Of a DNA stretch of 64,000 nucleotides, positions 8,317 to 58,634 are shown in pieces (position 1 is the first letter of the stretch; every line of letters starts with the position of its first letter). The translations under genes and the position numbers were made by a program. The notes below the pieces were generated by a model. The model was not told the DNA's origin and ran no database searches. It worked only from the letters and a program-made list of their open reading frames with translations. The DNA comes from Flaccisagitta enflata (taxonomy: Eukaryota): the NCBI GenBank assembly GCA_965153355.1, contig OZ231126.1:14756001-14820000 (forward strand). The letters are read 5' to 3'.

Positions 8317-10997
8317 CAGTCTATGGACAAAACGACAATCGCAACTTTTGCTAATCACTGGTAGGATGCTGAGGTGTGATCTTTTTCAAAATGCAGGCTT
8401 ATAACTGCTATGTAGAAAATTACTAAGGACTGAAGCAAACTTACAGAAGAACAATTACCACAGGGAGGCCATGTAAATTGTTAAAATGAACTTTTTAAAA
8501 ATTGAAAGCATATATGTTGGCATTCAGTCGCAAAGCCAGCCAGCAAATGTCAACTACCCTCCGTAAGTGTCAACTATCCCCCACAAGTGTCAAATCCCCC
8601 CCGCAGGTGTTGTCTACCCCCGGGCAAGTGTCACCTACCCCTCCAATTGTCCACTACCCCCTGCAAGTGTTGACTACCCCCCGCAAGTGTCGACTACCCC
8701 TCGCAAGTGTCGACTAGCTTTCGCAAGTGACAACTACCTGCAAGTGTCTACTACCCGCTGCAAGTGTTAACTACCCCCCACAAGTGTTGAATACCTCCCT
8801 CAAGTGTTGTCTACCCCGCAAAAGTGTCGACTACCCCCCAAAAGTGTCAACTACTCCCCAATTGTTGACTACCCCCCGCAAGTGTTGACTACCCCCCTTT
8901 AAGTGTCGACTACCTCCCGCAAGTATCAACTACCCCCGGTAAGTTTTGACTTCCTCTGTAAGTGTTGACTACCCCCTGCAAGTGTCAACCACCCCCTGCA
9001 AGTGTCGAATACTCCCCCCAAGTGTTGAATACTCTCAAAAGTGTCAACTATCCCTAAAAGTGTTGACTACCACCCCCACTACCCCCTGCAAGAGTTAACT
9101 ACCCCTGGCAAGTGTTGACTACCCCCGACAAGTGTCGACTACCCCTGGCAAGTGTTGACTACCCCCCGCAAGTGTCAACTACCCCTTGCAAGTGTTGATT
9201 ACCCCTTGACAGTGTAGACTACCTCGGGAAGTGTCAATTCCCCCTCCAAGTGCGAACTACCGCTCGCAAGTGTTGACTACCCCTTGCGAGTGTCAGTTAC
9301 CCCCAGCAAGTGTCAACTACCCCTGGCAAGTGTTGACTACCCCTGGCAAGTATCTATCACCTCTGCAAGTGTTGACTACCCCCCAAATGTCAACTACCCC
9401 CCTGCAAGTGTCGACCACCCTGCACAAGTGTCAACTACCCTTCAAGTGTCAACCTCCCGCTCAAGTGTCGACTACCCTGCAAGTGTATACTACCCCCAAG
9501 TGTCAACTACCTCCAAAAGTGTAGACTACCCTGCCTCAACTCCTCTCCAAGTGCTGACTACCCCCTGCAAGTGTCGACTATCCCCTCAAAAGTGTAGACT
9601 ACCCCAGCTAGTTTCAACTCCCCCTTGAAGTGTAGACCACCCCCGGCAAGTGTCAACAACCCCTGGTAAGTGTTGAATACCCCTGGCAAGAATCAACTAC
9701 CCCCTGCAAGTGTTGATTATTCCTCTCAAATGTTGATGACTTCCCATAAGTGTTTACTACCCTCGCAACATCAACTGCAAATGTCAACTACCCCCTACTA
9801 GCGTTAAATACCCTTTGAAAGGTTGACTACCCCAAACATAAACTTCCCAGGTGGTAGTTGACACTTTTGGGGGTAGACAACACTGTGTGTCGACACTTGT
9901 GGGGGTATTCGACACTTGTAGGGGTAGTCAACACTTGTCAGGGGTAGTAAACATTTGAGGGGGGTAGTCAACACTAGGGGGTAGTTGATTCTTGCCGAGG
10001 GTTGTTGATACCTGTGGGGGTATTCAACACTTGTGGGGGGTAGTTGACACTTGCGGGGGTAGTCGACATTTACGTGGTGTAGTGGACACCTGGGGGGTAG
10101 TCAATATTTGCAGAGGGTAGTCAACACTAGTTGACACTTGCAGTGGGTAGTCAACACTTGCAAGGGGTAGTCAATGCTTGGCTTGGGAGTTGACACTTGC
10201 TGGGGGTAGTCCACACTTCTGGGGGTAGTTGACACTTGCAGGGTAGGTAGTCGGCCCTTGTGGGGTAGTTGACACTTGCGGGGAGTCCACACTTTTGGGG
10301 TAGACAACACTTGTGGGGGGTATTTGACACATATGGGGGGTAGTTGACGTTAGCAAGAGTAGTCAACACTAGTGGGGGTATTCAACATTTGAGGGGGTAG
10401 TTGACACTTGCAGGGGGTAGTCAACACGCTCCGGGGGTACTCAACACTTTGAGGGGTAGTCGACACTTGCAGGGGGTAGTCTTCACTAAAAGGAGGTATT
10501 TAACAATTGCAGAGGGGTAGTTGACACTTGCAGGTGGTAGTTGACACTTGCAGGGGGTAGTAGACACTTGCAGGGGGGTAGTCAACACTTGCAAAAGGTA
10601 GTCGACATTTGCAAGAGGTAGGCGACACTTGCGGGGGGTAGTTAACACTTGCAGGGGGTAGTGGACAAATGGAGGGGTAGGTGACACTTGCCCGGGGGCA
10701 GACGACACCTGGGGGTGGTATTCGACACTTGCGGGGGGTAGTTGACACATGCGGGGGGTAGTTGACATTTGCTGGCCGGCATTGCGACTGAATTTCAACA
10801 TATGCTTTCAATTTTCAAAAAAGTTCATTTTAACTATTTACATGGCCTCTCTGTAGTAATTGTTCTTCTGTAAGTTTGCTTCAGTCCTTAGTATTTTTCT
10901 ACATGGCAGTTATAAGCCTGCATTTTGAAAAAGATCACACCTCAGCATCCTACCAGTGATTAGCAAAAGTTGCAATTGCCGTTTTGTCCATAGACTG
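8317..10997. mobile_element. Foldback-type element: ~230-bp terminal inverted repeats plus two inverted minisatellite arms
   Basis: TA|CAGTCTATGGACAAAACG...CGTTTTGTCCATAGACTG|TA. The TIRs continue into arrays of ~21-23-bp CAAGTGTYRACTACCCCC units, which switch to the reverse complement at about 9845. No transposase ORF. Confidence 0.92.
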
Positions 10998-13888: not shown

Positions 13889-14869
13889 GGATCCGGAGCA
13901 CTGTGTAGGTGAATTGGTGGTGATTAGGGGGTGATAGGGGGGTGATGGGTACTTATTTTTCATGGTGGTGGGATCCGGAGCACTGTGTAGGTGAATTGGT
14001 GGTGATTAGGGGGTGATAGGGGGGTGACGGGTACTTATTTTTCATGGTGGTGGGATCCGGAGCACTGTGTAGGTGAATTGGTGGTGATTAGGGGGTGATA
14101 GGGGGGTGACGGGTACTTATTTTTCATGGTGGTGGGATCCGGAGCACTGTGTAGGTGAATTGGTGGTGATTAGGTGGTGATAGGGGGGTGACGGGTACTT
14201 ATTTTTCATGGTGGTGGGATCCGGAGCACTGTGTAGGTGAATTGGTGGTGATTAGGGGGTGATAGGGGGGTGACGGGTACTTATTTTTCATGGTGGTGGG
14301 ATCCGGAGCACTGTGTAGGTGAATTGGTGGTGATTAGGTGGTGATAGGGGTGATGGGTACTTATTTTTCATGGTGGTGGGATCCGGAGCACTGTGTAGGT
14401 GAATTGGTGATTAGGGTGATAGGGGGTGATGGGTACTTATTTTTTGGTGGTGGGATCCAAGCACTGTGTAGGTGAATTGGTGGTGATTAGGGGGTGATAG
14501 GGGGTGATGGGTTCTTATTTTCATGGGTGGGATCCGGAGCACTGTGTAGGTGAATTGGTGGTGATTAGGGTGATAGGGGTGATGGGTACTTATTTTCATG
14601 GTGGTGGGATCCGGAGCACTGTGTAGGTGAATTGGTGGTGATTAGGGGGTGATAGGGGGGTGACGGGTACTTATTTTTCATGGTGGTGGGATCCGGAGCA
14701 CTGTGTAGGTGAATTGGTGGTGATTAGGGGGTGATAGGGGGGTGATGGGTACTTATTTTTCATGGTGGTGGGATCCGGAGCACTGTGTAGGTGAATTGGT
14801 GGTGATTAGGGGGTGATAGGGGGGTGATGGGTACTAATTTTTCATGGTGGTGGGATCCGGAGCACTGTG
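13889..14869. repeat. 82-bp G-rich minisatellite, about 12 copies
   Basis: Unit GGATCCGGAGCACTGTGTAGGTGAATTGGTGGTGATTAGGGGGTGATAGGGGGGTGACGGGTACTTATTTTTCATGGTGGTG; copies start at 13889, 13971, 14053 and so on, some with small deletions. Confidence 0.97.
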
Positions 14870-34223: not shown

Positions 34224-35033
34224 GTAGGCACATGCCCCCAACTCTTCTCCTCCAATTACTATCTAGGAAAAAGATAAAGAGGACAGCTGGATAAAAGCTA
34301 GCATTCTTACTCATTGAATGAAATATGAGTTCATATGAATATACCTTTGATCGTAAAGACATAATGTGTTTTGAGTTTCCTCAGGAGGGTTGGTCTTTGA
34401 TTATTTTTACCTAATTTGAAAAATCATTGAATCCTTTGCCTTTGATTTCATCAACAATAAAAAAAATTTAGATAAATGTATATAATCTAGTGAGGCCAAG
34501 CAAAATGATTTTGATCAATCGCTTTGGAAATGAGAGCTCTTTCAATGAAGCTAATTTCTACTACTTCACTTGTTTGAAAATAGCCGGCAAATTTTTCAGA
34601 AAGAATCCGGTCAAGTCGCGGAAAAGATTTTTCCCACAATCAATTTTTTTGCCAAACACATCAAAAGATCCAGCGGCCGACAGAGACGAAAACATTTTTC
34701 CCCCTCTCAATTGCCAACCTCTTTGCTATCGGCATTTTTTTGGATTTCAAAGGCGAAAGAATTTTCCTTTTTTTGTCTGAATTCAAAAAGGGGAGGTTTT
34801 TTTGTAATGCGGTGACAAATTCTATAAAGGCTAAAATCCTGAAAGGACTTGATCCCAGAAAAGACTTGATCCCAGATAAAGACTTGATCCTGCTAAACGA
34901 TTCCAGTAAAAGACTTTCAATTCCTGAAAACTCGATTTCCTGCTTAACGATCATAACCTACGGCGGCGGCGTGGCGGCGGCGGCAAACTCAGTCGGGCGT
35001 CAAGCTTTAATCAAGCAAAACGGCGTCTGGCTT

Positions 35034-36323
35034 ATGTCAGCAACCTCGACGGCGTCACCTCGGGCCCCTGGGGGGCGGGGGTCCCGAAAAATCAAGGAAA
35101 ACCCTCAATACCCATCGCAACCGGGTGTAAGGACGTCAGCGGAGAATCGGCGCCTGGCGGCGGCGGCGGCGCCGGACATGTCTAGTCCTTCAACAACGAC
35201 GAGACCAAAGACAGCACCGTCGACAACGCCAGGCTCAAAGGATAAGAAGAAAAGGCTCAGTTCATCGACGACGCCAAAGGGGGCGACGGCGTCGACGGCG
35301 ACAACGCCGACGGGGCTACTTCCGGCGTCGGCATCGATGCCGGTGGAAAGCGGCGGTGGCGGTGGCGGTGGCAACGCTGAAAAAGCTGATATCATGGTGA
35401 GATTAGCCCAATTGGAGGAGAAAGTTGAGAGATTTGAAGAGGAAGGAAAGCTAAAGGACCGGGAAATCTTTGAGCTCAGAGATCGTCTTGAGGAGGAGGA
35501 GTTTGAGAGGAAGAGAGTCGAGGATAGATTTAAAGATAGATTGGAGGAGGAAGGAAAGAAACAGGAGGAGGAAATCCGAGTTCTAAAGGAGAAAGTCTTG
35601 GAGCTGGAAAAGAAGGAGGAGGGCCGACAGGTGGTGGGAGCAGAAGATCCAAGGCAAGAAGAAGCCAGGGGGGAGCGGGAGAGGTATAAGGGAGTCATCC
35701 TAACGGACTCTAATGGAAGAGGAACAACCGAGGGCACCATTAAGAACCACATCCCGAGGAAAGAGAGGGGAAAGTTTGAGATTCGGGTGGATGACACGGC
35801 ATACACGATGGGAGAAGCCCTTGAACGCGTGGGTGTGGGGGAGGGGAAGGTGGATGTAAGTGGTGCAATAGTAGTGGTCGATTCCCTGACTAACGACATC
35901 AGAGGATCAAGGAAAGTGACTCCGGCGTCACCCGAGGAACTTGTGCATCGTGTTAGTCGGCTGTGGCAAGGACTGTTTGCAGCCGGTGCAGCAGCTGTTG
36001 TAATTTGCGAGGCCAAGCCAATGCGTGACGTCGATGTCTCTCAGCACAATCGCCTTCTCAGCGAGTTTTTGGAGAACAGTGGAGCAGGCGGATATGGTTG
36101 CAGAACCCAGATGAGAATGAACTATCTGAAGATGGATGGCGTCCATTTTTGACCTGAGTTTGGCTCTATCTTAGATCGCACTTATGCATGCGCTATATTA
36201 GGCATACATGTCCCGTGCCCTACCCCGCTTGAGGATTTTGTACCCGAGTTTGTGAGACGTAGGTGGGAGAGAGAGTGGCCTAGGATAGGTAGAGGTGGGC
36301 CAGGAAGGGCGCCCATGTTTTAG
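35034..36323 (+). pseudogene. LINE ORF1: coiled coil plus SGNH esterase-like domain, with a premature stop at 36150-36152
   Basis: Heptad-rich E/K/R segment; SGNH-like blocks ILTDSNGR, VVVDSLTNDIR and DGVHF. The frame stays open after the TGA up to TAG at 36323, 3 nt before the ORF2 ATG. Confidence 0.8.
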
Positions 36324-36326
36324 ACT

Positions 36327-39300
36327 ATGGCGGCTGGTTCTGTTGATCTGCGTGGAGTGGGGCGTTGCCCACGTTGCGAGGTTTGTGGTACCGCTGTTAG
36401 GACGAGGGGTCTGGGGGTTGGGGGGGTGTGGTGCCCGGGTTGCTTAGGTGGTGCCCTGCCCTTTGTTGGACTAGTGGCAGAGGGGGAGTTTAGGGGTGCC
36501 CTTAGGGAGTATAGGGAGGGGCTGGGGTCGAGGGCCAGGGACTTCTTGGGTTTGAGGTGAGGAGGTGAGGGGGGCTCTTGGGGGGGTGGACGCCACACTT
36601 AGGGGGTGTGGGTATGTTGGGGGGGACGAGGTCAGGGGGAAGCTTAGAGAGCGCGCCAGGGATGGGGGCTGTTCCCTCTCCCTCCTCTTCCATAATGTGA
36701 GGAGTGCGCGGGGGCCTGGGATGGAGTTGTTTGAGGCGGAGCTGAGGAGGTGGGGGGTCCAATGGGATGTGGTGGGGTTGGCTGAGACTTGGTTGGATGG
36801 GGAGAGTGAGAAGGGGGTGGCGGTTCAGGGTTACGGGGCGGTGTTTGCATCAAGGGGGAGCAAGAGGGGTGGGGGGGTGGCTCTACTTTTGAGGGATGGA
36901 CTCACGTACAGGGAGAGGCCTGACCTGGGGACTTTTACTGAGGGGGTTTTTGAGTCTCTGTTTGTGGAGATTGTTAGGGGAGGGGGATGTAGGAATGACA
37001 TAATTGGGGTGGTCTATAGGTCCCCAGGGGGAGACCTGGGGGTGTTTAATGATGAGATGGCCAGGGTGCTGACTAGACTCCGGGGGACGGACGCTTACAT
37101 AATGGGTGATTTCAATGTTGACTTGTTGAGGACTGGCACCCATGAGCCAATGTCAGACTTCATGGGGGGATTCTCATCAGGGGGTTTCTACCCCCTGATA
37201 TCTCTCCCCGCAAGGCTGACAGACACTACTGCGACATTGATAGATAACATATGGACCAATAACTTGGGGGTGGGTATTGGGAGTGGGTTGGTGACGGTCA
37301 GGGTGTCGGACCACCTCCCTGTGTTTGCGTTTGTTGGGGGAGGTGGGCCAATAGAGGGGCAGGGGAGTGGGGGGGTGGGAGGTAGGAGGCGGCTGGTGAA
37401 TGAGGGTCGCATTGGCCGGTTTGCTGAGGAGTTGGAGGGGTGGGCTTTTGATGTGGAGGGGGCCCTGGGAGTTGAGGGGAATGTTGCGCGTTTTCGGAAT
37501 GCCTTCAGGGATCTGTATGACGCGCGTTTCCCATGGGTTGAGGACAAGAGGAACCGGAGGTACATTGAGAAGCCCTGGCTCAATGACGCCGAGTTCAAGG
37601 GGCTGGTCAGGGAGAAGGGTGAGCTGTACTCCAGGAAGCTGAGGGGGTTGCTAGATGAGGAGGGTGGGCGTAGACTGGTTGAAGTAAACAGGACAGTGGG
37701 GAACATGAGGCAGCGCCTGAAGAGGGCTTACTTCAACCAGAGGCTGGGTGAGATAGGTGGGGACCTGAGGGCCACCTGGGAGGTTTTGGGGGAGGTTTTA
37801 AGGGGTAGGAAGGGTCAGGGTAAGGGGGCGCCGTGTCGCTACTTCCTGAAGGAGGGGGTGCCGGTGACAGACGGGGCGAGGATAGCGGAGGGGTTCTGTG
37901 ATTTTTATTGCCAGGTGGGGCCGGGGCTGGCGTCTAGGATAGGCAGGGAACGGGATGGGGCCTTCCTGGAGTACATGGGGGAGAGGGTTGAGGAGTCCCT
38001 CATCTGGAGCCCCACGACTCCATTTGAGGTGGAGGAGCTGTGTAGGTCTCTGGCTCCGAGGAAGGGGATGGGGTGGGATGGGGTGTCGCCGCGGGTGATT
38101 AGGGGGGTTGCGAGGGAGCTCTCTGGCTCCTTGTCGAGGCTCTTCAACTGCTGCATGCGGGGTGGTTTCTATCCTGCTTGCTTCAAGGTTGCAAGGGTGG
38201 TCCTGGTTTTCAAGGGAGGGGACCCCACTGAGTTCTCGAACTATCGCCCGGTTTCGGTCCTGCCTGTACTCTCTCAGCTCTTTGAGAGGGTGTTGCAGAA
38301 GAGGCTGGTGGCCTTCTTCGACAGGCACCGGGTGATCGTCCCGGGGCAGTATGGGTTCAGGGCTGGTCATTCCACGTCCATGGCTGTATTGGACATGGTG
38401 GAGAGGGTAAGGGGGGCATGGGAGAAAGGGGACGTCTCTCTTGGGGTTTTCATAGACCTCAAGAAGGCGTTCGACACAGTGGACCATCAGCTTCTCCTTG
38501 GGAAGCTGGAGCATTATGGAGTGAGGGGGCAGACTCTGGAGCTCCTCCGGAGTTACCTGGAGGGGAGGGCCCAGTATGTTCAGTATGGGGGTTTTGAGTC
38601 AGAAAGGGGTCAGGTTGAGTGTGGAGTCCCTCAAGGATCAGTGTTAGGCCCTCTGTTCTTCTTGATCTATGTCAACGACATGGCAAGAGCATGCAGGGGC
38701 CATGATCTGGTCCTTTTTGCGGATGACACAAATATTTTTGCCCAGGGGAGGGACCCTGCTGAGCTTTTTGGGTTGGTGAATGGGGGTTTGGGTGAGCTCA
38801 GCAGATGGTTTAGGTGCAACAGACTTACTCTGAACTTGAAAAAGACTGAGTTTGTCTACTTTGGCGGACCTGGGGCCAGGGGGCACCTACCGGAAAGGCT
38901 GGGGCTGGAGTTTGGAGGTGAGAGGGTGGTACAGGTGGATGGGTCTTGTTTTCTAGGGGTGTGGGTGGATGGGGGCTTGAGGTGGTCGGGGCAGATAGAG
39001 CAGGTCCGGACGAAGGTTGCCCGGCTGCTGGGGGTGCTTGGTAGGGCGGGGGAGGTTTTGAGTAGTGGGTCCCTTCTCTCGCTCTATAATGCGTTGGTCC
39101 TCCCACACCTGCAGTACTGCCTTATGGTGTGGGGAGATTTCAAGGGTGGGCGGAATCTGACAGTGGGGGGGGCTCTTCTTAGGTACCAGAAGAGATTTGC
39201 TGGCCTGGTTGCTGGAAAGAGGGGGCGGTACCATGCAGACCCGCCCCTGGCTCAGCATGGCATGCTCAAGGTGGAGGACCTGTACAGGCAACAGCTCCGG

Positions 39301-39495
39301 GTCCACGCCTGGTGCTTCTGGAGGGGCAGGCTCCAAGAGAACCAGGCAGCTATGCTGGGCAGGATTGATGGGGTGCATGGGTATGGGACGAGGGCTGCAA
39401 GGGGGGGGCTTTATCTTTCGACCAGGGACCATAGGTCAGTGGGGTACAGGGTGCTGAAGGAGTGGGCGGCTTTGGGGGAGGATCACAGGGGGTTT
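36327..39495 (+). pseudogene. LINE ORF2: Cys-rich N-terminus, APE endonuclease and reverse transcriptase; frameshift near 36560
   Basis: CEVC...WCPGCLGGALPF; APE motifs LAETW, YRSP, GDFNVD, TLIDNIW, SDHLPVF; RT motifs NYRPVSVLP, QYGFR, DLKKAFDTVDH, GVPQGSVLGP, FADDT. Confidence 0.95.
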
Positions 39496-41322
39496 GTTTG
39501 TTTGTTATCCAACGTAGAAGATCGAGTTGACTAAATAAAATCGTCCAGAGAAGAGAGAGAGTCAGAAAGGGAAATGTGGCCCGGAGAGTCCGAGTTGAAG
39601 GATGAGGATGAAGGAATCGAGAGAGTTGAGAAAAGCGAGTGAGAAGAAGAACCGCCCGGCGAAGGTGGTGGGGCCGGAGGTGGCCGGCCGTTAGGATGGA
39701 TTGACGGCGGCTATAAATTACGCCCACGAGTTTCAACTGGCACTGTCTATGAGCGTCTAGCTGACTGACGACTTGTGGTGAAAGAAAGTTGGCCGATTGG
39801 AAAATAGGAAGGCGATCGTCTCGTTTATTCCATAAAAATTTCAACAACTGAAGAGAGGGGATAAAATGAAAGGGAAAGTGGGCGTTAATGGTGATCAGCA
39901 AACGCAAAAGATAACATGAAATCGAGACAGGACACAATAAAGGACAGAAACAGCACATGACAACATGTTCATCTTCTTCAGAGCCCATGCCACCTGATAA
40001 TACCTGCCCCTGCCCCGGCCCATCCCATTAAATTCATCCATATCATCCCCATAGTAAGCTGATCGGGCAAACGATAAAACCATACTAAAATCCATCGATA
40101 AAATGCAAAATGCAAAAGACAAAAATAACAGACCGGAAGACAAGATAAAAACAACGTTACTAAAAGCAAAGACGCGTCTATAAAACTTACTTTTAGGCCC
40201 ACTTTCGTTGGTTTCAACCCACAGTCTGTCGATGTCAAACTAACGTTAATTGTCCGTTCATAAGTTTATCTGCAATAAAAAGATGAGAGATTATTGAAAT
40301 TAGTAAATTCCAAGGGCACATTCAATCAATCACGAAAAATCAATCAATCACTTTAGGAAGCACATTAAATAAAAATAAAAACAATCGATCCAAAATTGGA
40401 TGACACGAAACGAGTTACGTATGTTTGTTTACGTAATAAAAACAAATGGCATAAAATACAAGGCGCAACCATATGGTTACCCATCTAGCTTTATATAAAA
40501 ATGCGAGAAACAAAAGACACCGGCATTGAATAATAAGAAAGAAGAAAATCAAAAGCACGCAAAAGAAACAAAAGCACACATACTTAATAGACGGACGGAC
40601 ATACATTTCTAACATTCTGCCCCATATTTTTGGAATTTCACTAATTTCAAAACTGACATCTAGTTTCCGGTCGGGGAAACCTCACAAAAACCGACATTAC
40701 CTTCCTTAAAAAATTTACATAGACATGGTGCTCCTCGCCCTCCCCCGTCCACCGCCTCATATCCCCACCCCAATTATCATCAACAGATCGACGACTGCAC
40801 GAATGATGACTCCTGTCCGGAAAGGATCCACCACCAGCAAATTTTCAACGATCAACGATGACGCGGATGGAGACGAGTATGCACGAGGAGGTTGAGGCAC
40901 CCTGCCTCTGTAAAAGTTAAGGGAAAGGGGGGAAGGGAACGTGGCCTGGAGCACTCAAGCCTGGATTTGACTGAGAGGGAAACAATATAGGGGGTATACT
41001 ATCAGTAACATGTCATACGAAAGTATTCAGAAAATGACTAAAAAGACCATGTCTAAAACAAACACAACAAATGTACATGTTCCATAGGAAATCAAACAAA
41101 AACAAGACAAAATTAACAAATATTAACTATATATAAAAACGAACCCAAAGCAAAAAAAAATAGTAAGCATCATGGAACGACCACATCACCTATGCCTACC
41201 CATTACAGAGACGAGCGGGTCATTCCGGCCCAACATCTCACAATCTGTGGGCGGTAAAGGCGATGATGATATCGCCAACGGCACCGCATCGAAAGGCGTG
41301 AGGGTGGTGCAGCCGCCTGAGA

Positions 41323-53547: not shown

Positions 53548-55654
53548 GAATGTAGGAATGCGATAATCTCAGATGGTATACCATTTTCAGGCATGTCGTA
53601 TTTCTTGCATTATATTGACTGAAAACAACCATCACTCCCAATTGTCCAAAAGAGTGATATGTTATGGTTCAAAACGGATACGCAAAAAAAGTGCTACTGA
53701 CCTTCAGGCATTAGGTGTTCATACAAAATATTCGTCTCATTCTTTGATAAGCTGAACAAAAAATCACAAGCTGGTTTAAGATGAGGAGGATAACTTTGAT
53801 AGCACGTATATACATCCATGATATCAAGCTGGTTGAATATGAGGGGGATAACTTTGTTAGCAGGCATCCATATCCATGATATCAAGCTTGATTCCTTGCT
53901 ATATCAGTATAAATAAGTTTGAAATATCTAATTACTGCCTTGATTTGATTTTGCTAATCAGTGCTGTGCAAATCAGTAAAAATAAGTTTGAAATATTTAT
54001 TAACTACCTTGATTTGATTTTGCTAATCAGTAAGGTGCTAATCAATACTGTGCAAAACGGTTATGCTTAGTCTGTTTCTTAGTAGTACCGTCAGAACTGC
54101 ATTTGTTTCTGCCATAACTGTGAAAAAAATGCTGGATATTACCATTTTAAAACAAGACACAAATAACTGAGAGGCTGGAAACTGGCAAGACGGCATAAGA
54201 GAGCGAGACCTTTAGCCTGATAGACTGACCTACTTAGTAACTCACTGACCGGCAGACTGCCCCCCCCCTACAATACTAAGGGCGCACTCCATCCCCTCAT
54301 CTCTCTACCTCGACTGCTATACTTGACTACTTTTAAACTTGACTATTATTGAACTATGATTGGGTTGCACAACTTACTTTCTTACGTACTTACTGAATGA
54401 CGGTCTGACTGATCGATGGCTGACACTTGAAAGGTGAGTACAGTAACGTGAAAGAGACAGAGTCCCGTGCGCCGTAAAAGGCTTTAAAGGAAAGAGTTTC
54501 AGAATCCTAAAACTTTTAATCACCATTAGAAATTATTTCGGTTCTATACAAAAAACGATTTGGCGGAACTGAATGATGGAAGGTGTCCACTGTAGCGACT
54601 TCCAACTGTCACCTTTACTAATACTCGCTTCAAAATCAATTAGAATTAGAAATCTACTTTCAATGTAAAATGCAAAATCTGAATTTAATTATGATGCTGT
54701 CAAAATGAATCAAGATGTAACTGAATCCAGTTTTTTACAGAATAGAGAGTTGTATGCTACTCTAAATTGTCTTCTTTTATCTCTGTTTGAAACTTCAACA
54801 AGTTCAATAGCGTAAATAGATAATGGCACGCAATGCGTTGTGACAAGATGCACAAGACAGGGGAGGGGGGGATACGGACAGACGTAGAAGGAGAAAATTC
54901 CCCATATGTGTGAAAGCATAGGTCATCAACCCCTTCGGGGCCGCTGCCCAAAAAGGACGAAAGAGAAGCTGAGGAAGATGAGGAAGCGGAGGAGGCGGAG
55001 AAGGGGAGGAAGGTCGTCTCTGTCTGGAAATTCATTAGAGAGAAAAAGTTATTAGAGCAGTTTTGATGGATATGTATTCTCTCTCTGAGATGGCTTTTGC
55101 TCATCCTTTATCTTCTCATTACTTTGTCCTTTACTTCCTTCCATTATTTGTTTTACTTACCGTACTTGTTCCTTACTAATGGCTAATTCCGTGTTTCGTC
55201 ATGCGCGCGAGAAACCCTGACTCTCCACCATTGTAGAAGTGTCATTGCTTCTTCTGCTGAATTGCATAAGGTCACAAAGGTTGGGTGACATACCTAACTA
55301 TCTGGTGTGCCATACTAAACCAATTTTTGCCACACCGACTGCCCCTATGGGATCCAAAACAGGGGTAGAAGGGTCGATTTGGGCCTGTCCCGATTTTGTC
55401 CCTGCAAGCAAAACGCAAGTTTAACCAATCAAAAAATGTCAATTGGGGTCATCCAATAGCTTGTAAGCAATCACTGTCAATCCATTGATATGTGTAGAAA
55501 GTTTGTATTCAATATTTGTATATCTCTGCTCATCGCATTCATTAAAATGGTTCCTACGTCAGACTCAAAGCCAGTCACAGACTGGGGTATCTGCTAGGAC
55601 ACCAAAAACATATCCAATGGAACAAATCATCAGCCTCTAGTAAGTCAGCCTTCT

Positions 55655-55709
55655 TGGTCTAATGGTTAGAACACTTGCCTTCAGAAATGAGGGTCAGGGG
55701 TTCGAATCC
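55655..55709 (+). promoter_or_regulatory. tRNA-type Pol III internal promoter (A box and B box), repeated in each unit
   Basis: A box TGGTCTAATGG (55655-55665) and B box GGTTCGAATCC (55699-55709) at tRNA-like spacing. No run of 4 or more T in the unit; the first T5 is at 57467. Confidence 0.75.
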
Positions 55710-55728
55710 AGGACGGGCATGAAGGTAA

Positions 55729-55786
55729 CACAGGAGTTTGAGGGAGCGCTTAAAACGCTGAGTCGGTCCCAAGCCCGACAACTGTG
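55729..55786 (+). ncRNA. Twister ribozyme-like motif, P5-type permutation, copy 1
   Basis: CACAG-GA-GTTT-GAGGG-AGCGCT-TAA-AAC-GC-TGA-GTCGG-TCCCAAGC-CCGAC-AA-CTGTG: closing stem CACAG/CTGTG, P4 GTCGG/CCGAC with UCCCAAGC loop, GAGGG and GC pseudoknot partners; predicted U^A site at 55751/55752. Confidence 0.75.
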
Positions 55787-56025
55787 GTGACTTACTATGC
55801 TGATGTAAAACAAATTGTATATCTCTGCTCATCGCATTCATTAAAATGGTTCCTACGTCAGACTCAAAGCAAATCACAGTCTGGGCTATTGCCATGGACA
55901 CCAGTTGAAACTCTGCGAACTTATAATCAGCCTCTAGTAAGTCAGCCTTCATGGTCTAATGGTTAGAACACTTGCCTTCAGAAATGAGGGTCAGGGGTTC
56001 GAATCCAGAACGGGCATGAAGGTAA

Positions 56026-56083
56026 CACAGGAGTTTGAGGGAGCGCTTAAAATGCTGAGTCGGTCCCAAGCCCGACAACTGTG
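56026..56083 (+). ncRNA. Twister ribozyme-like motif, copy 2
   Basis: As copy 1; the AAAC>AAAT change keeps P2 as a G-U wobble. Confidence 0.72.
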
Positions 56084-56324
56084 GTGACTTACTATGCTGA
56101 TGTAAAACAAATTGTATATCTCTGCTCATCGCATTCATTAAAATGGTTCCTACGTCAGACTCAAAGCCAGTCACAGACTGGGGTATCTGCTAGGACACCA
56201 AAAACATATCCAATGGAACAAATCATCAGCCTCTAGTAAGTCAGCCTTCATGGTCTAATGGTTAGAACACTTGCCTTCAGAAATGAGGGTCAGGGGTTCA
56301 AATCCAGGACGGGCATGAAGGTAA

Positions 56325-56382
56325 CACAGGAGTTTGAGGGAGCGCTTAAAACGCTGAGTCGGTCCCAAGCCCGACAACTGTG
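56325..56382 (+). ncRNA. Twister ribozyme-like motif, copy 3
   Basis: Same sequence as copy 1. Confidence 0.75.
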
Positions 56383-56623
56383 GTGACTTACTATGCTGAT
56401 GTAAAACAAATTGTATATCTCTGCTCATCGCATTCATTAAAATGGTTCCTACGTCAGACTCAAAGCCAGTCACAGACTGGGGTATCTGCTAGGACACCAA
56501 AAACATAGCCAATGGAACAAATCATCAGCCTCTAGTAAGTCAGCCTTCATGGTCTAATGGTTAGAACACTTGCCTTCAGAAATGAGGGTCAGGGGTTCGA
56601 ATCCAGGACGGGCATGAAGGTAA

Positions 56624-56681
56624 CACAGGAGTTTGAGGGAGCGCTTAAAACGCTGAGTCGGTCCCAAGCCCGACAACTGTG
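56624..56681 (+). ncRNA. Twister ribozyme-like motif, copy 4
   Basis: Same sequence as copy 1. Confidence 0.75.
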
Positions 56682-56922
56682 GTGACTTACTATGCTGATG
56701 TAAAACAAATTGTATATCTCTGCTCATCGCATTCATTAAAATGGTTCCTACGTCAGACTCAAAGCCAGTCACAGACTGGGGTATCTGCTAGGACACCAAA
56801 AACATATCCAATGGAACAAATCATCAGCCTCTAGTAAGTCAGCCTTCATGGTCTAATGGTTAGAACACTTGCCTTCAGAAATGAGGGTCAGGGGTTCGAA
56901 TCCAGGACGGGCATGAAGGTAA

Positions 56923-56980
56923 CACAGGAGTTTGAGGGAGCGCTTAAAACGCTGAGTCGGTCCCAAGCCCGACAACTGTG
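56923..56980 (+). ncRNA. Twister ribozyme-like motif, copy 5
   Basis: Same sequence as copy 1. Confidence 0.75.
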
Positions 56981-57221
56981 GTGACTTACTATGCCGATGT
57001 AAAACAAATTGTATATCTCTGCTCATCGCATTCATTAAAATGGTTCCTACGTCAGACTCAAAGCCAGTCACAGACTGGGGTATCTGCTAGGACACCAAAA
57101 ACATATCCAATGGAACAAATCATCAGCCTCTAGTAAGTCAGCCTTCATGGTCTAATGGTTAGAACACTTGCCTTCAGAAATGAGGGTCAGGGGTTCGAAT
57201 CCAGGACGGGCATGAAGGTAA

Positions 57222-57279
57222 CACAGGAGTTTGAGGGAGCGCTTAAAACGCTGAGTCGGTCCCAAGCCCGACAACTGTG
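57222..57279 (+). ncRNA. Twister ribozyme-like motif, copy 6
   Basis: Same sequence as copy 1. Confidence 0.75.
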
Positions 57280-58634
57280 GTGACTTACTATGCTGATGTA
57301 AAACAAATTGTATATCTCTGCTCATCGCATTCATTAAAATGGTTCCTACGTCAGACTCAAAGCCAGTCACAGACTGGGGTATCTGCTAGGACACCAAAAA
57401 CATATCCAATATTTCAACTGTAAGATGACAAAAAATGAATTTGAATTATGATACTCTTCCCCTTTATTTTTCTGTCATTTTTTACTAAAAATGAGTTAGG
57501 TAGACAGTTTTTTTCGTAGGCCTATCTTTACTCAAACATTAAGCATTTTTTCTTTTTTCATTGTATTAAGGTTTAGTTGAAGGACCTTTCCTCCGATTTT
57601 CAAAGATTTTTTCCATTTCAATCATGAGAAATACTTATTTTCCTGGAGCGTTACAATTCAAAGGTGCTCCTTGTTGTAGCTGTCACACTTGTGTCACACT
57701 ATGATTCATACTATGCCACGGCATAGTAACATAAGTGACGAAAAATTCATCTACATAATGGGAAAGAAAATCAAATTCTGTACTTGCAGCTAAAATTTCA
57801 ACTCTTAACTCCAAACTGTTTGGTCACAGTGAAATTCCAAAGATGATCACTACAAAAATAAGAATTGAATTGTAATGCTCGCCGACCAAGCTTTGTAGTT
57901 AATTCTTTGTTTCCACACAGCGCTTCCCACACATATGTGCGATGCTTTTAAGTTTTATTTTGATAAAATTTCTCAAAATTCAAATTTGCATATCTCAGGA
58001 ACTATCTGAGTAAGCCCTATGAAATTTTGCCTGGTTGGTATCTAGATCAAGAGACTCCTTTGCCTAAATTCTGATGCGACCTAGAGAATGTTGAGCAGTC
58101 CAACCAGACCAACCAGCCTACCAGATAAAAAAATGAAAAAAAGGCATAACTTCTAAAATAGTTGACCGATCTGGTTGAAATTTTGCATGGAGCTTCCTTT
58201 AAAGATTCCTTGTCATTGGCATAAAAAAAAGCATGGGAAAAATTTTTTTCTTCCAACAGCCCACCCAGCCAGAAATAGTGCTTATAGAGATTTTCTTAAA
58301 AAACTAAAAAAATTCAAAAAAATTTCAGAAACATGATCACACATGTTTGCTTGAACGTTATCAATAAGAATTTCACTGTCAGATTGATTTCATAATTGTA
58401 TTTAGCTAAATTTTCTAGTAATAAAATTGCCAACAATATCTATTTAAGCCTAATTTGCATGGAAAATGAGTTTACTTAAGAAAATCTAAGTATGGATTTA
58501 TATGTAAGAATAGGTGAGCTACATGATGACATATGGTTTTGTTCAATTTTCAAACATGTAAAATTGACAAATTTCATCCCGTCCACGGTCGGCTTAGCGT
58601 GACACCAGTCTAATGAATTTGGATCTCTGGGTGT

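Follow-up and report, generated by a model that had tools for sequence, protein, structure and literature searches.

Background

Metazoan genomes carry tandem hammerhead retrozymes, repeats of about 300 bp (range 150-450 bp) with a GC content under 45%, and these give rise to circRNAs that are ligated by RtcB (PMC7229834). In the Sm-alpha SINEs of Schistosoma, which often lie in tandem, a Pol III promoter is paired with a hammerhead (PMC6765202). Some hammerheads act as dimers in tandem transcripts, and a loop-less palindrome beside the cleavage site is the hallmark of this group (PMC6765202). For the twister ribozyme, stem P1 is reported to be conserved yet dispensable for cleavage (PMC5408937).

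Here we describe a tandem array of a non-coding 299-nt unit in Flaccisagitta enflata, located in the 64,000-nt stretch of contig OZ231126.1 that was analysed (the window; all positions are counted from its first letter). The unit shares with the metazoan non-LTR retrozymes (PMC7229834) its form as a non-coding tandem repeat of ~300 bp with rather low GC, a single ribozyme per unit on one strand, a highly self-paired predicted RNA, and presence in RNA libraries. Those retrozymes have a type I hammerhead, whereas the ribozyme predicted here is a twister; a tRNA-derived, Pol III-like module such as the one we propose for the unit is not described for metazoan retrozymes in PMC7229834; and circRNA is reported from the metazoan elements (PMC7229834), whereas the unit is known from contigs and the genomic array alone. 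The order of a Pol III-type module followed by a ribozyme is that of Sm-alpha (PMC6765202), as are the tandem arrangement, in which an upstream unit can drive the next, and the release of monomers from multimers, both of which would apply to the unit as well. Sm-alpha has a hammerhead in place of the twister, and the unit further differs from it in a 121-nt structured spacer, a 17-bp clamp and a head that is unrecognised by tRNA models.

Among twisters, the T-variants of the RTE-type LINE Perere-3 (PMC8501958) resemble the candidate described here in being animal ribozymes linked to non-LTR elements with a weak or variable P1. They are of type P1, take the 5' strand of P1 from the target-site duplication and stand before a protein-coding LINE, whereas the predicted twister of the unit is of type P5 and lies in a non-coding 299-nt tandem unit. 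The asymmetric twister circular RNAs (bioRxiv 10.1101/2022.07.19.500677) are, like the unit, small, non-coding and branched, with a twister on one strand and closed-cycle assemblies; they are mostly twister-P1 and are known from RNA data alone, with hosts unknown, whereas the unit forms a chromosomal tandem array. The dimeric hammerheads of Penelope-like elements, the newt satellite and amphibian retrozymes (PMC6765202, PMC7229834) are also tandem, and in these, as in the unit, the helix on the cleavage side is a short palindrome that is unable to close on itself. They belong to another ribozyme class, and dimeric action of the unit would be hypothetical; a literature search yielded no natural dimeric twister. 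In viroids of the Avsunviroidae-like kind both polarities carry ribozymes and there is no DNA stage, whereas the unit has a predicted ribozyme on the plus strand only and resides in chromosomal DNA. In our literature searches, no paper described a twister unit that is tandemly repeated in a chromosome and has a tRNA-derived head; supplementary lists may include related eukaryotic repeats.

Array and unit organization

Tandem Repeats Finder placed a plus-strand array at positions 55516-57410, with a period of 299, 6.3 copies and 96% matches. Our own alignment resolved this array into six full copies, starting at 55516, 55815 (297 nt), 56112, 56411, 56710 and 57009, and one 103-nt partial copy (57308-57410). 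Five copies are 0-1 base off the consensus; we took the copy at 57009-57307 (plus strand), which shows 0 differences to the majority consensus, as the reference unit, with unit position 1 at 57009. The exception is the 297-nt copy at 55815-56111, which has an identity of ~92% overall and a diverged block at unit positions 57-113. This block covers the interior of the spacer hairpin and a linker, and the rest of the copy is nearly identical to the other copies. Such a mosaic suggests recombination between subfamilies. The stretch to which the original prediction referred, 55924-56240, consists of the end of this diverged copy and part of the next unit. No further copies of the unit were found outside the array in the 64-kb window.

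The unit has a GC content of 45.8%, and its longest stop-free run is 61-77 codons. A Zeta-like endless ORF was considered and ruled out: none is present, and the unit length of 299 is not divisible by 3. The plus strand contains no TTTT and four AAAA runs. Each unit is predicted to fold into two lobes linked by a bipartite 17-bp helix (7 + 10 bp): one lobe consists of a tRNA-derived-looking hairpin adjoining a P5-closed twister, and the other of an A/U-rich spacer with a 57-nt hairpin.

At the two edges of the array we found the same 8-mer, CAATATTT, overlapping the left edge at 55510-55517 and the right edge at 57407-57414 (both plus strand). It occurs only 6 times in the window, counting both strands, and is possibly a target-site duplication or microhomology from the insertion of a multimer. 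Six of its eight letters also match the unit, and the left flank (55255-55511, ~260 nt) has a weak collinear likeness to the unit, running from position 241 round to ~168 (7/200 shuffles scored as high); for both reasons the 8-mer is no proof of a duplication. The left flank may be an older, decayed copy that received the young array, which weakens the duplication reading. The predicted cleavage site coincides with neither edge. The last copy breaks off at unit position 99-103, which is 11-15 nt past the spacer hairpin, and the start of the array looks 5'-truncated.

Elsewhere, the window has a eukaryotic appearance, with abundant microsatellites and a LINE. A 20-nt repeat forms long arrays at 8543-9713 and 9889-10772 in opposite orientation (as GCAAGTGTCGACTACCCCCC and as the reverse complement of this sequence), which together make up a large inverted structure, and an 82-nt tandem repeat with 12 copies and 95% matches occupies 13889-14869. 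A 992-aa frame at 36556-39534 (plus strand) with an Exo_endo_phos endonuclease and an RVT_1 reverse transcriptase represents a non-LTR retrotransposon, directly upstream of which lies a 522-aa frame (34584-36152). We found no twister core at or near this LINE, and no sequence or tail that it shares with the repeat unit. Atlas look-ups showed a weak lean of the LINE towards echinoderms and were uninformative for an LRR ORF.

Predicted fold of the unit

The original prediction named a set of stems, all of which exist in the 299-nt repeat. Within the stretch 55924-56240, a 10-bp stem TAGTAAGTCA/TGACTTACTA pairs 55935-55944 with 56085-56094, an 8-bp stem CCTTCATG/CATGAAGG pairs 55946-55953 with 56015-56022, and a 7-bp stem GCTGATG/CATCAGC pairs 56096-56102 with 56224-56230, each with 100% complementarity. 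The CACAG/CTGTG stem, here at 56026 and 56079, is present in every copy, and the core of the spacer hairpin, CCAGTCACAGACTGG, lies at 56167. One arm differs in a detail from the original prediction: CATCAGC is found in five of the six copies, and at 55925 the arm reads AATCAGC.

In the reference unit, the 5' arms of the bridging helix are CATCAGC (57121-57127) and TAGTAAGTCA (57131-57140), together 57121-57140, and the 3' arms are TGACTTACTA (57281-57290) and GCTGATG (57292-57298), together 57281-57298 (all plus strand). The longest stems had been proposed to pair sequence upstream of the tRNA-like part with sequence downstream of the ribozyme, and this 7 + 10 bp helix does so. In the linear stretch 55924-56240 the 7-bp arm pairs with its downstream partner, which in a circle is the same helix. 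In a circle or multimer, the 7 + 10 bp helix would bridge the lobe with the tRNA-like part and the ribozyme and the lobe with the spacer.

To assess the stability of this fold, we compared folding energies with those of shuffled sequences. The stretch 55924-56240 folded at -102.7 kcal/mol (shuffles -78.5 +/- 4.9; z -5.0; 0/100 as good). The plus strand of the consensus unit reached -98.7 kcal/mol as a circle (shuffles -71.4 +/- 4.9, z -5.6) and -104.1 kcal/mol as a linear molecule (shuffles -76.0 +/- 4.7, z -6.0), and the minus strand as a circle reached -88.4 kcal/mol (shuffles -70.9 +/- 5.0, z -3.5), with none of 300 shuffles as good in any of these three cases. The clamped domain (unit 113-290) gave a z of -6.9 against its shuffles. 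A stable, branched fold, as originally predicted, is thus borne out for both the circular unit (z -5.6) and the stretch 55924-56240 (z -5.0), and the comparison with shuffles that had been proposed as a check returned no shuffle as good as either.

For the circular ensemble we obtained pair probabilities of 0.8-1.0 in all four named stems, with 64% of bases paired overall. Barring the arms of the bridging helix from pairing cost 21.8 kcal/mol. Because the tRNA-like piece and the ribozyme are structured in any case, we also performed a control in which only the three linker segments were shuffled; these sequences folded at -86.7 +/- 3.1 kcal/mol, and 1 of 400 reached -98.7. The boundary-crossing stems contribute stability of their own to the fold of the unit. 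A single perfect 10-bp inverted repeat is by itself only mildly unusual (5/300 shuffles); the unusual feature is the nested set of stems, not the lone 10-bp repeat.

The spacer is 121 nt long and structured. Its hairpin (unit 33-89; 57041-57097, plus strand) is built from TGGT/ACCA, TCCTA/TAGGA, CAGA/TCTG and CCAGTC/GACTGG, and folds alone at -20.4 kcal/mol (z -2.6; 3/300 shuffles as good). In the diverged copy, 55815-56111, the base of the hairpin is kept and the interior is refolded (-15.6 vs -21.8 kcal/mol); this is the one copy in which the inner spacer hairpin is lost. Across the six window copies and the contigs of four public runs described below, we found 0 compensatory changes. Three single changes in the window copies (A139T, C113A and T286C) disrupt one stem pair each, and C241T keeps its P2 pair as G-U. 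The public contigs vary at few unit positions, namely 29, 94, 95, 182 and 184.

Candidate twister ribozyme

We performed Rfam searches of both strands. The ribozyme predicted from these alignments is a type-P5 twister and not a hammerhead. With the twister model RF02684 (clan CL00120), each of the six full copies scored 29.7-30.4 bits, the lowest score being that of the diverged copy; the E-value was 1.3e-3 when 4 kb were searched and 1.1e-4 when the search was confined to the unit. The score of 30.4 bits is below the Rfam gathering threshold of 37.6, and a scan of the whole window at gathering thresholds returned no twister match. In the reference unit, the Rfam match covers 57229-57271 and is flanked by a closing stem P5, CACAG (57222-57226) and CTGTG (57275-57279), so that the candidate ribozyme with its P5 spans 57222-57279 on the plus strand. 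In the stretch 55924-56240 the match lies at 56034-56075 (plus strand), in a copy with a C to T change in P2 that turns a G-C pair into G-U. The twister was found on the plus strand only. Hammerhead identity was ruled out, as a search of both strands at E values up to 10 matched no hammerhead, and no other Rfam ribozyme was found on either strand of the unit. We also considered a type-P1 twister, in which UAACACAG would be the cleavage site plus P2, and rejected it, as GAGGG does not follow CTGTG.

The motifs GAGGG, UAA, GC and CGGUCCCAAGCCCG (14/14 letters) align to the upper-case consensus in the right order in 6/6 copies, and every one of them has all the conserved nucleotides of loops L1 and L4 along with the L2 GC. 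The conserved loop nucleotides are also intact in the contigs of four public runs. A 13-mer of the twister core occurs six times in the window, always within the array, and 0/100 shuffles match that count. By direct reading, P4 (CGG/CCG) and the pseudoknots T1 (GGG/CCC) and T2 (GC/GC) are complementary; pseudoknots are outside the scoring of folding energies, and the nested twister helices alone come to +4.5 kcal/mol vs -19.4 for a competing fold. The P5 stem CACAG/CTGTG flanks the match at the position where type P5 has its open stem, with a pair probability of 0.99-1.0.

The score lost relative to RF02684 lies in P1 and P2. P2 has only three pairs (GUU/AAC), is A-U rich and leaves one model position unpartnered. 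What is left of P1 is the loop-less palindrome AGCGCU (AGC/GCU), from which the 14-nt loop region of the model is missing, and AGC/GCU without a loop cannot form P1 in cis. Since cleavage is reported not to depend on P1 (PMC5408937), the motif may still be able to cut. From the Rfam alignment and the U-A rule (PMC5408937), the predicted self-cleavage site lies at 57244/57245 (plus strand), just after the palindrome AGCGCT, where the U of the adjoining UAA would be separated from its first A; the equivalent site in the stretch 55924-56240 would be at 56048/56049 (plus strand).

tRNA-like module

Upstream of the candidate ribozyme, a tRNA-derived-looking module is closed by a 9-bp stem (unit 133-211; 57141-57219, plus strand; from folding, with the box motifs found by eye). 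It contains TGGTCTAATGG (57148-57158, plus strand) and GGTTCGAATCC (57192-57202, plus strand), which look A-box-like and B-box-like, respectively. The module folds as one long irregular hairpin (z -5.7) and not as a cloverleaf. ARAGORN reported tRNA hits only once its threshold had been dropped to 70%, and these appear to be spurious; the Rfam tRNA model had no match to the unit at E values up to 10. The "tRNA-like head" of the original prediction therefore goes unrecognised by either method and comes down to box-like motifs.

Occurrence in public sequencing runs

Among the 24 runs listed from an index of public runs, 20 contained the unit, and in 18 of these no less than half of its words were present. 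These 20 runs come from 14 studies, all of them marine or seawater metagenomes; 6 are RNA libraries and 14 are marked 'DNA?', and the share of unit words is the same in 'DNA?' runs as in RNA runs. We checked contigs in 4 of the 24 listed runs, one marked 'DNA?' and three RNA libraries from three studies. In all four, contigs join the end of the unit to its start, going back 299, and in three of the four a 328-nt contig corresponds to a closed cycle of 298 nt with a 30-letter overlap. The closed-cycle contigs carry 0-3 substitutions and one 1-nt gap, spacer included. They appear alike in the RNA libraries and the DNA run and do not separate circles from tandem copies; the contig evidence shows neither RNA ends nor strand, and RNA libraries can carry DNA of high-copy repeats.

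It had been proposed that the functional unit is the full ~299-nt monomer or circle rather than a SINE with an accidentally co-amplified flank. Contigs from 4/4 runs include the spacer nearly unchanged and join the unit ends; it is thus the whole unit that repeats, and not a SINE plus a locus-specific flank. That part of the proposal stood, whereas for the circle the contigs fit tandem copies equally.

Two further contigs, of depth about 3, are diverged and hint at relatives; they are too short to show whether the spacer is kept in relatives. In one the spacer is more diverged, with CTGCTAGGA of the spacer before the matching part, and the other is without 8 nt of the twister. A search of metagenome contigs with a pattern of B-box, GAGGG and L4 gave 0 matches, and a family-specific 23-mer was absent from the metagenome contigs and the viral contigs searched (0 matches in each).

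Discussion

We propose, with a probability of roughly 55%, that this element is a genome-encoded, non-coding tandem retroelement of the retrozyme or Sm-alpha kind that carries a type-P5 twister. Pol III, the probable polymerase, would start from the internal boxes and transcribe across several units, since the plus strand is without a T4 terminator. The twister would cut directly behind the U at 57244 and at the corresponding sites of other units. Because P5 and the 17-bp helix clamp the domain in which the cut sits, the two ends of a unit-length RNA would be kept together, and ends held in this way would make a good substrate for an RtcB-type ligase. An RtcB-type or tRNA-ligase-type enzyme would then ligate the unit into a 299-nt circle, and a LINE reverse transcriptase may occasionally copy multimers or circles into DNA, giving rise to new tandem arrays. 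We infer the polymerase, cleavage, ligation and retrotransposition steps by analogy, for the enzymatic steps, with hammerhead retrozymes (PMC7229834) and Sm-alpha (PMC6765202). The structure had originally been called viroid-like. It is stable and branched; in the strict sense the term does not apply, and we regard the element as retrozyme-like rather than viroid-like because the predicted ribozyme is on one strand only and the unit is encoded in genomic DNA.

The reduced P1 also allows a more elaborate version of this model, which we hold to be doubtful, in which the element would be the first natural retrozyme with a "double twister". With P1 reduced to loop-less AGCGCU, the ribozyme would assemble only across two units, by domain-swapped P1/P2; multimers would therefore be cut, and the 299-nt circle, clamped by 17 bp, would be protected from being cleaved again. 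Such a circle would carry its own Pol III promoter and could serve as a template for rolling-circle reverse transcription. When two twister segments were folded together with RNAcofold, the dimer gained no more than 3.4 kcal/mol over two monomers, and its extra pairs came from swapping of P5, not P1, so folding does not support the dimer idea.

Several other explanations deserve to be weighed. A linear SINE cycle as in Schistosoma Sm-alpha, where the ribozyme would trim unit-length linear RNAs, the spacer would be the 3' domain recognised by a LINE and no circle would form, is in our view unlikely. It draws on the Sm-alpha precedent (PMC6765202), on contig data that give no circle-specific signal, and on the shape of the array, which ends at unit 99-103, shortly (11-15 nt) beyond the spacer hairpin, and starts as if 5'-truncated. 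Linear monomers, however, predict single copies bounded at the cleavage site, whereas we see 6.3 in-phase units with neither edge there, and the unit has no similarity to the LINE in the window. We consider it rather more unlikely still that the array is inert satellite DNA from a tRNA-derived SINE, with a relic twister, stems that are leftovers or DNA palindromes, and an RNA signal from read-through or DNA carry-over. The sub-threshold Rfam score with its weak P1 and P2 fits such decay, as do the lack of covariation and the single changes that break stems. The pairs of the bridging helix are moreover nearly all Watson-Crick, so either strand can form them (the minus strand has a z of -3.5), and DNA can occur in RNA libraries. 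Decay does not sit well with twister loop nucleotides that are intact in 6/6 copies and in the contigs of four runs despite the reduced P1, nor with a plus strand that folds clearly better than the minus strand, and the unit is present in six RNA libraries among the runs listed, the three with checked contigs representing three studies.

The presence of the unit in marine metatranscriptomes, together with the abundance of twister circular RNAs in metatranscriptomes generally (930 asymmetric clusters; bioRxiv 10.1101/2022.07.19.500677), would also suit an integrated cDNA of an exogenous viroid-like circular RNA replicon, comparable to the carnation retroviroid-like element. Against such an origin, which we judge very improbable, stand the ribozyme on only one strand, the 14 'DNA?' runs with the same share of unit words as the RNA runs, and a Pol III-like head of host type. 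Still less credible to us is that the 17-bp arms are the terminal inverted repeats of a MITE that was later tandemly amplified, with RNA structure irrelevant. Perfect Watson-Crick arms around a 140-nt core are what a MITE would have; yet these arms enclose exactly the Pol III-like head and the ribozyme, each closed by a stem of its own, the array edges lie in the spacer and not at the arms, and the window holds no solo copy bounded by arms.

Animal tandem ribozyme repeats that make small circular RNAs have so far been described with hammerheads, and animal twisters have so far been tied to the 5' ends of LINEs. The unit is compact at 299 nt, which makes for an easy bench test, and its palindromic P1 offers a natural test case for the regulation of twisters by dimerisation. 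If the retrozyme-like reading is true, a second ribozyme class would join the retrozyme lifestyle, and a chromosomal twister unit with a promoter-like head would link the "orphan" twister circles of metatranscriptomes to a host genome.
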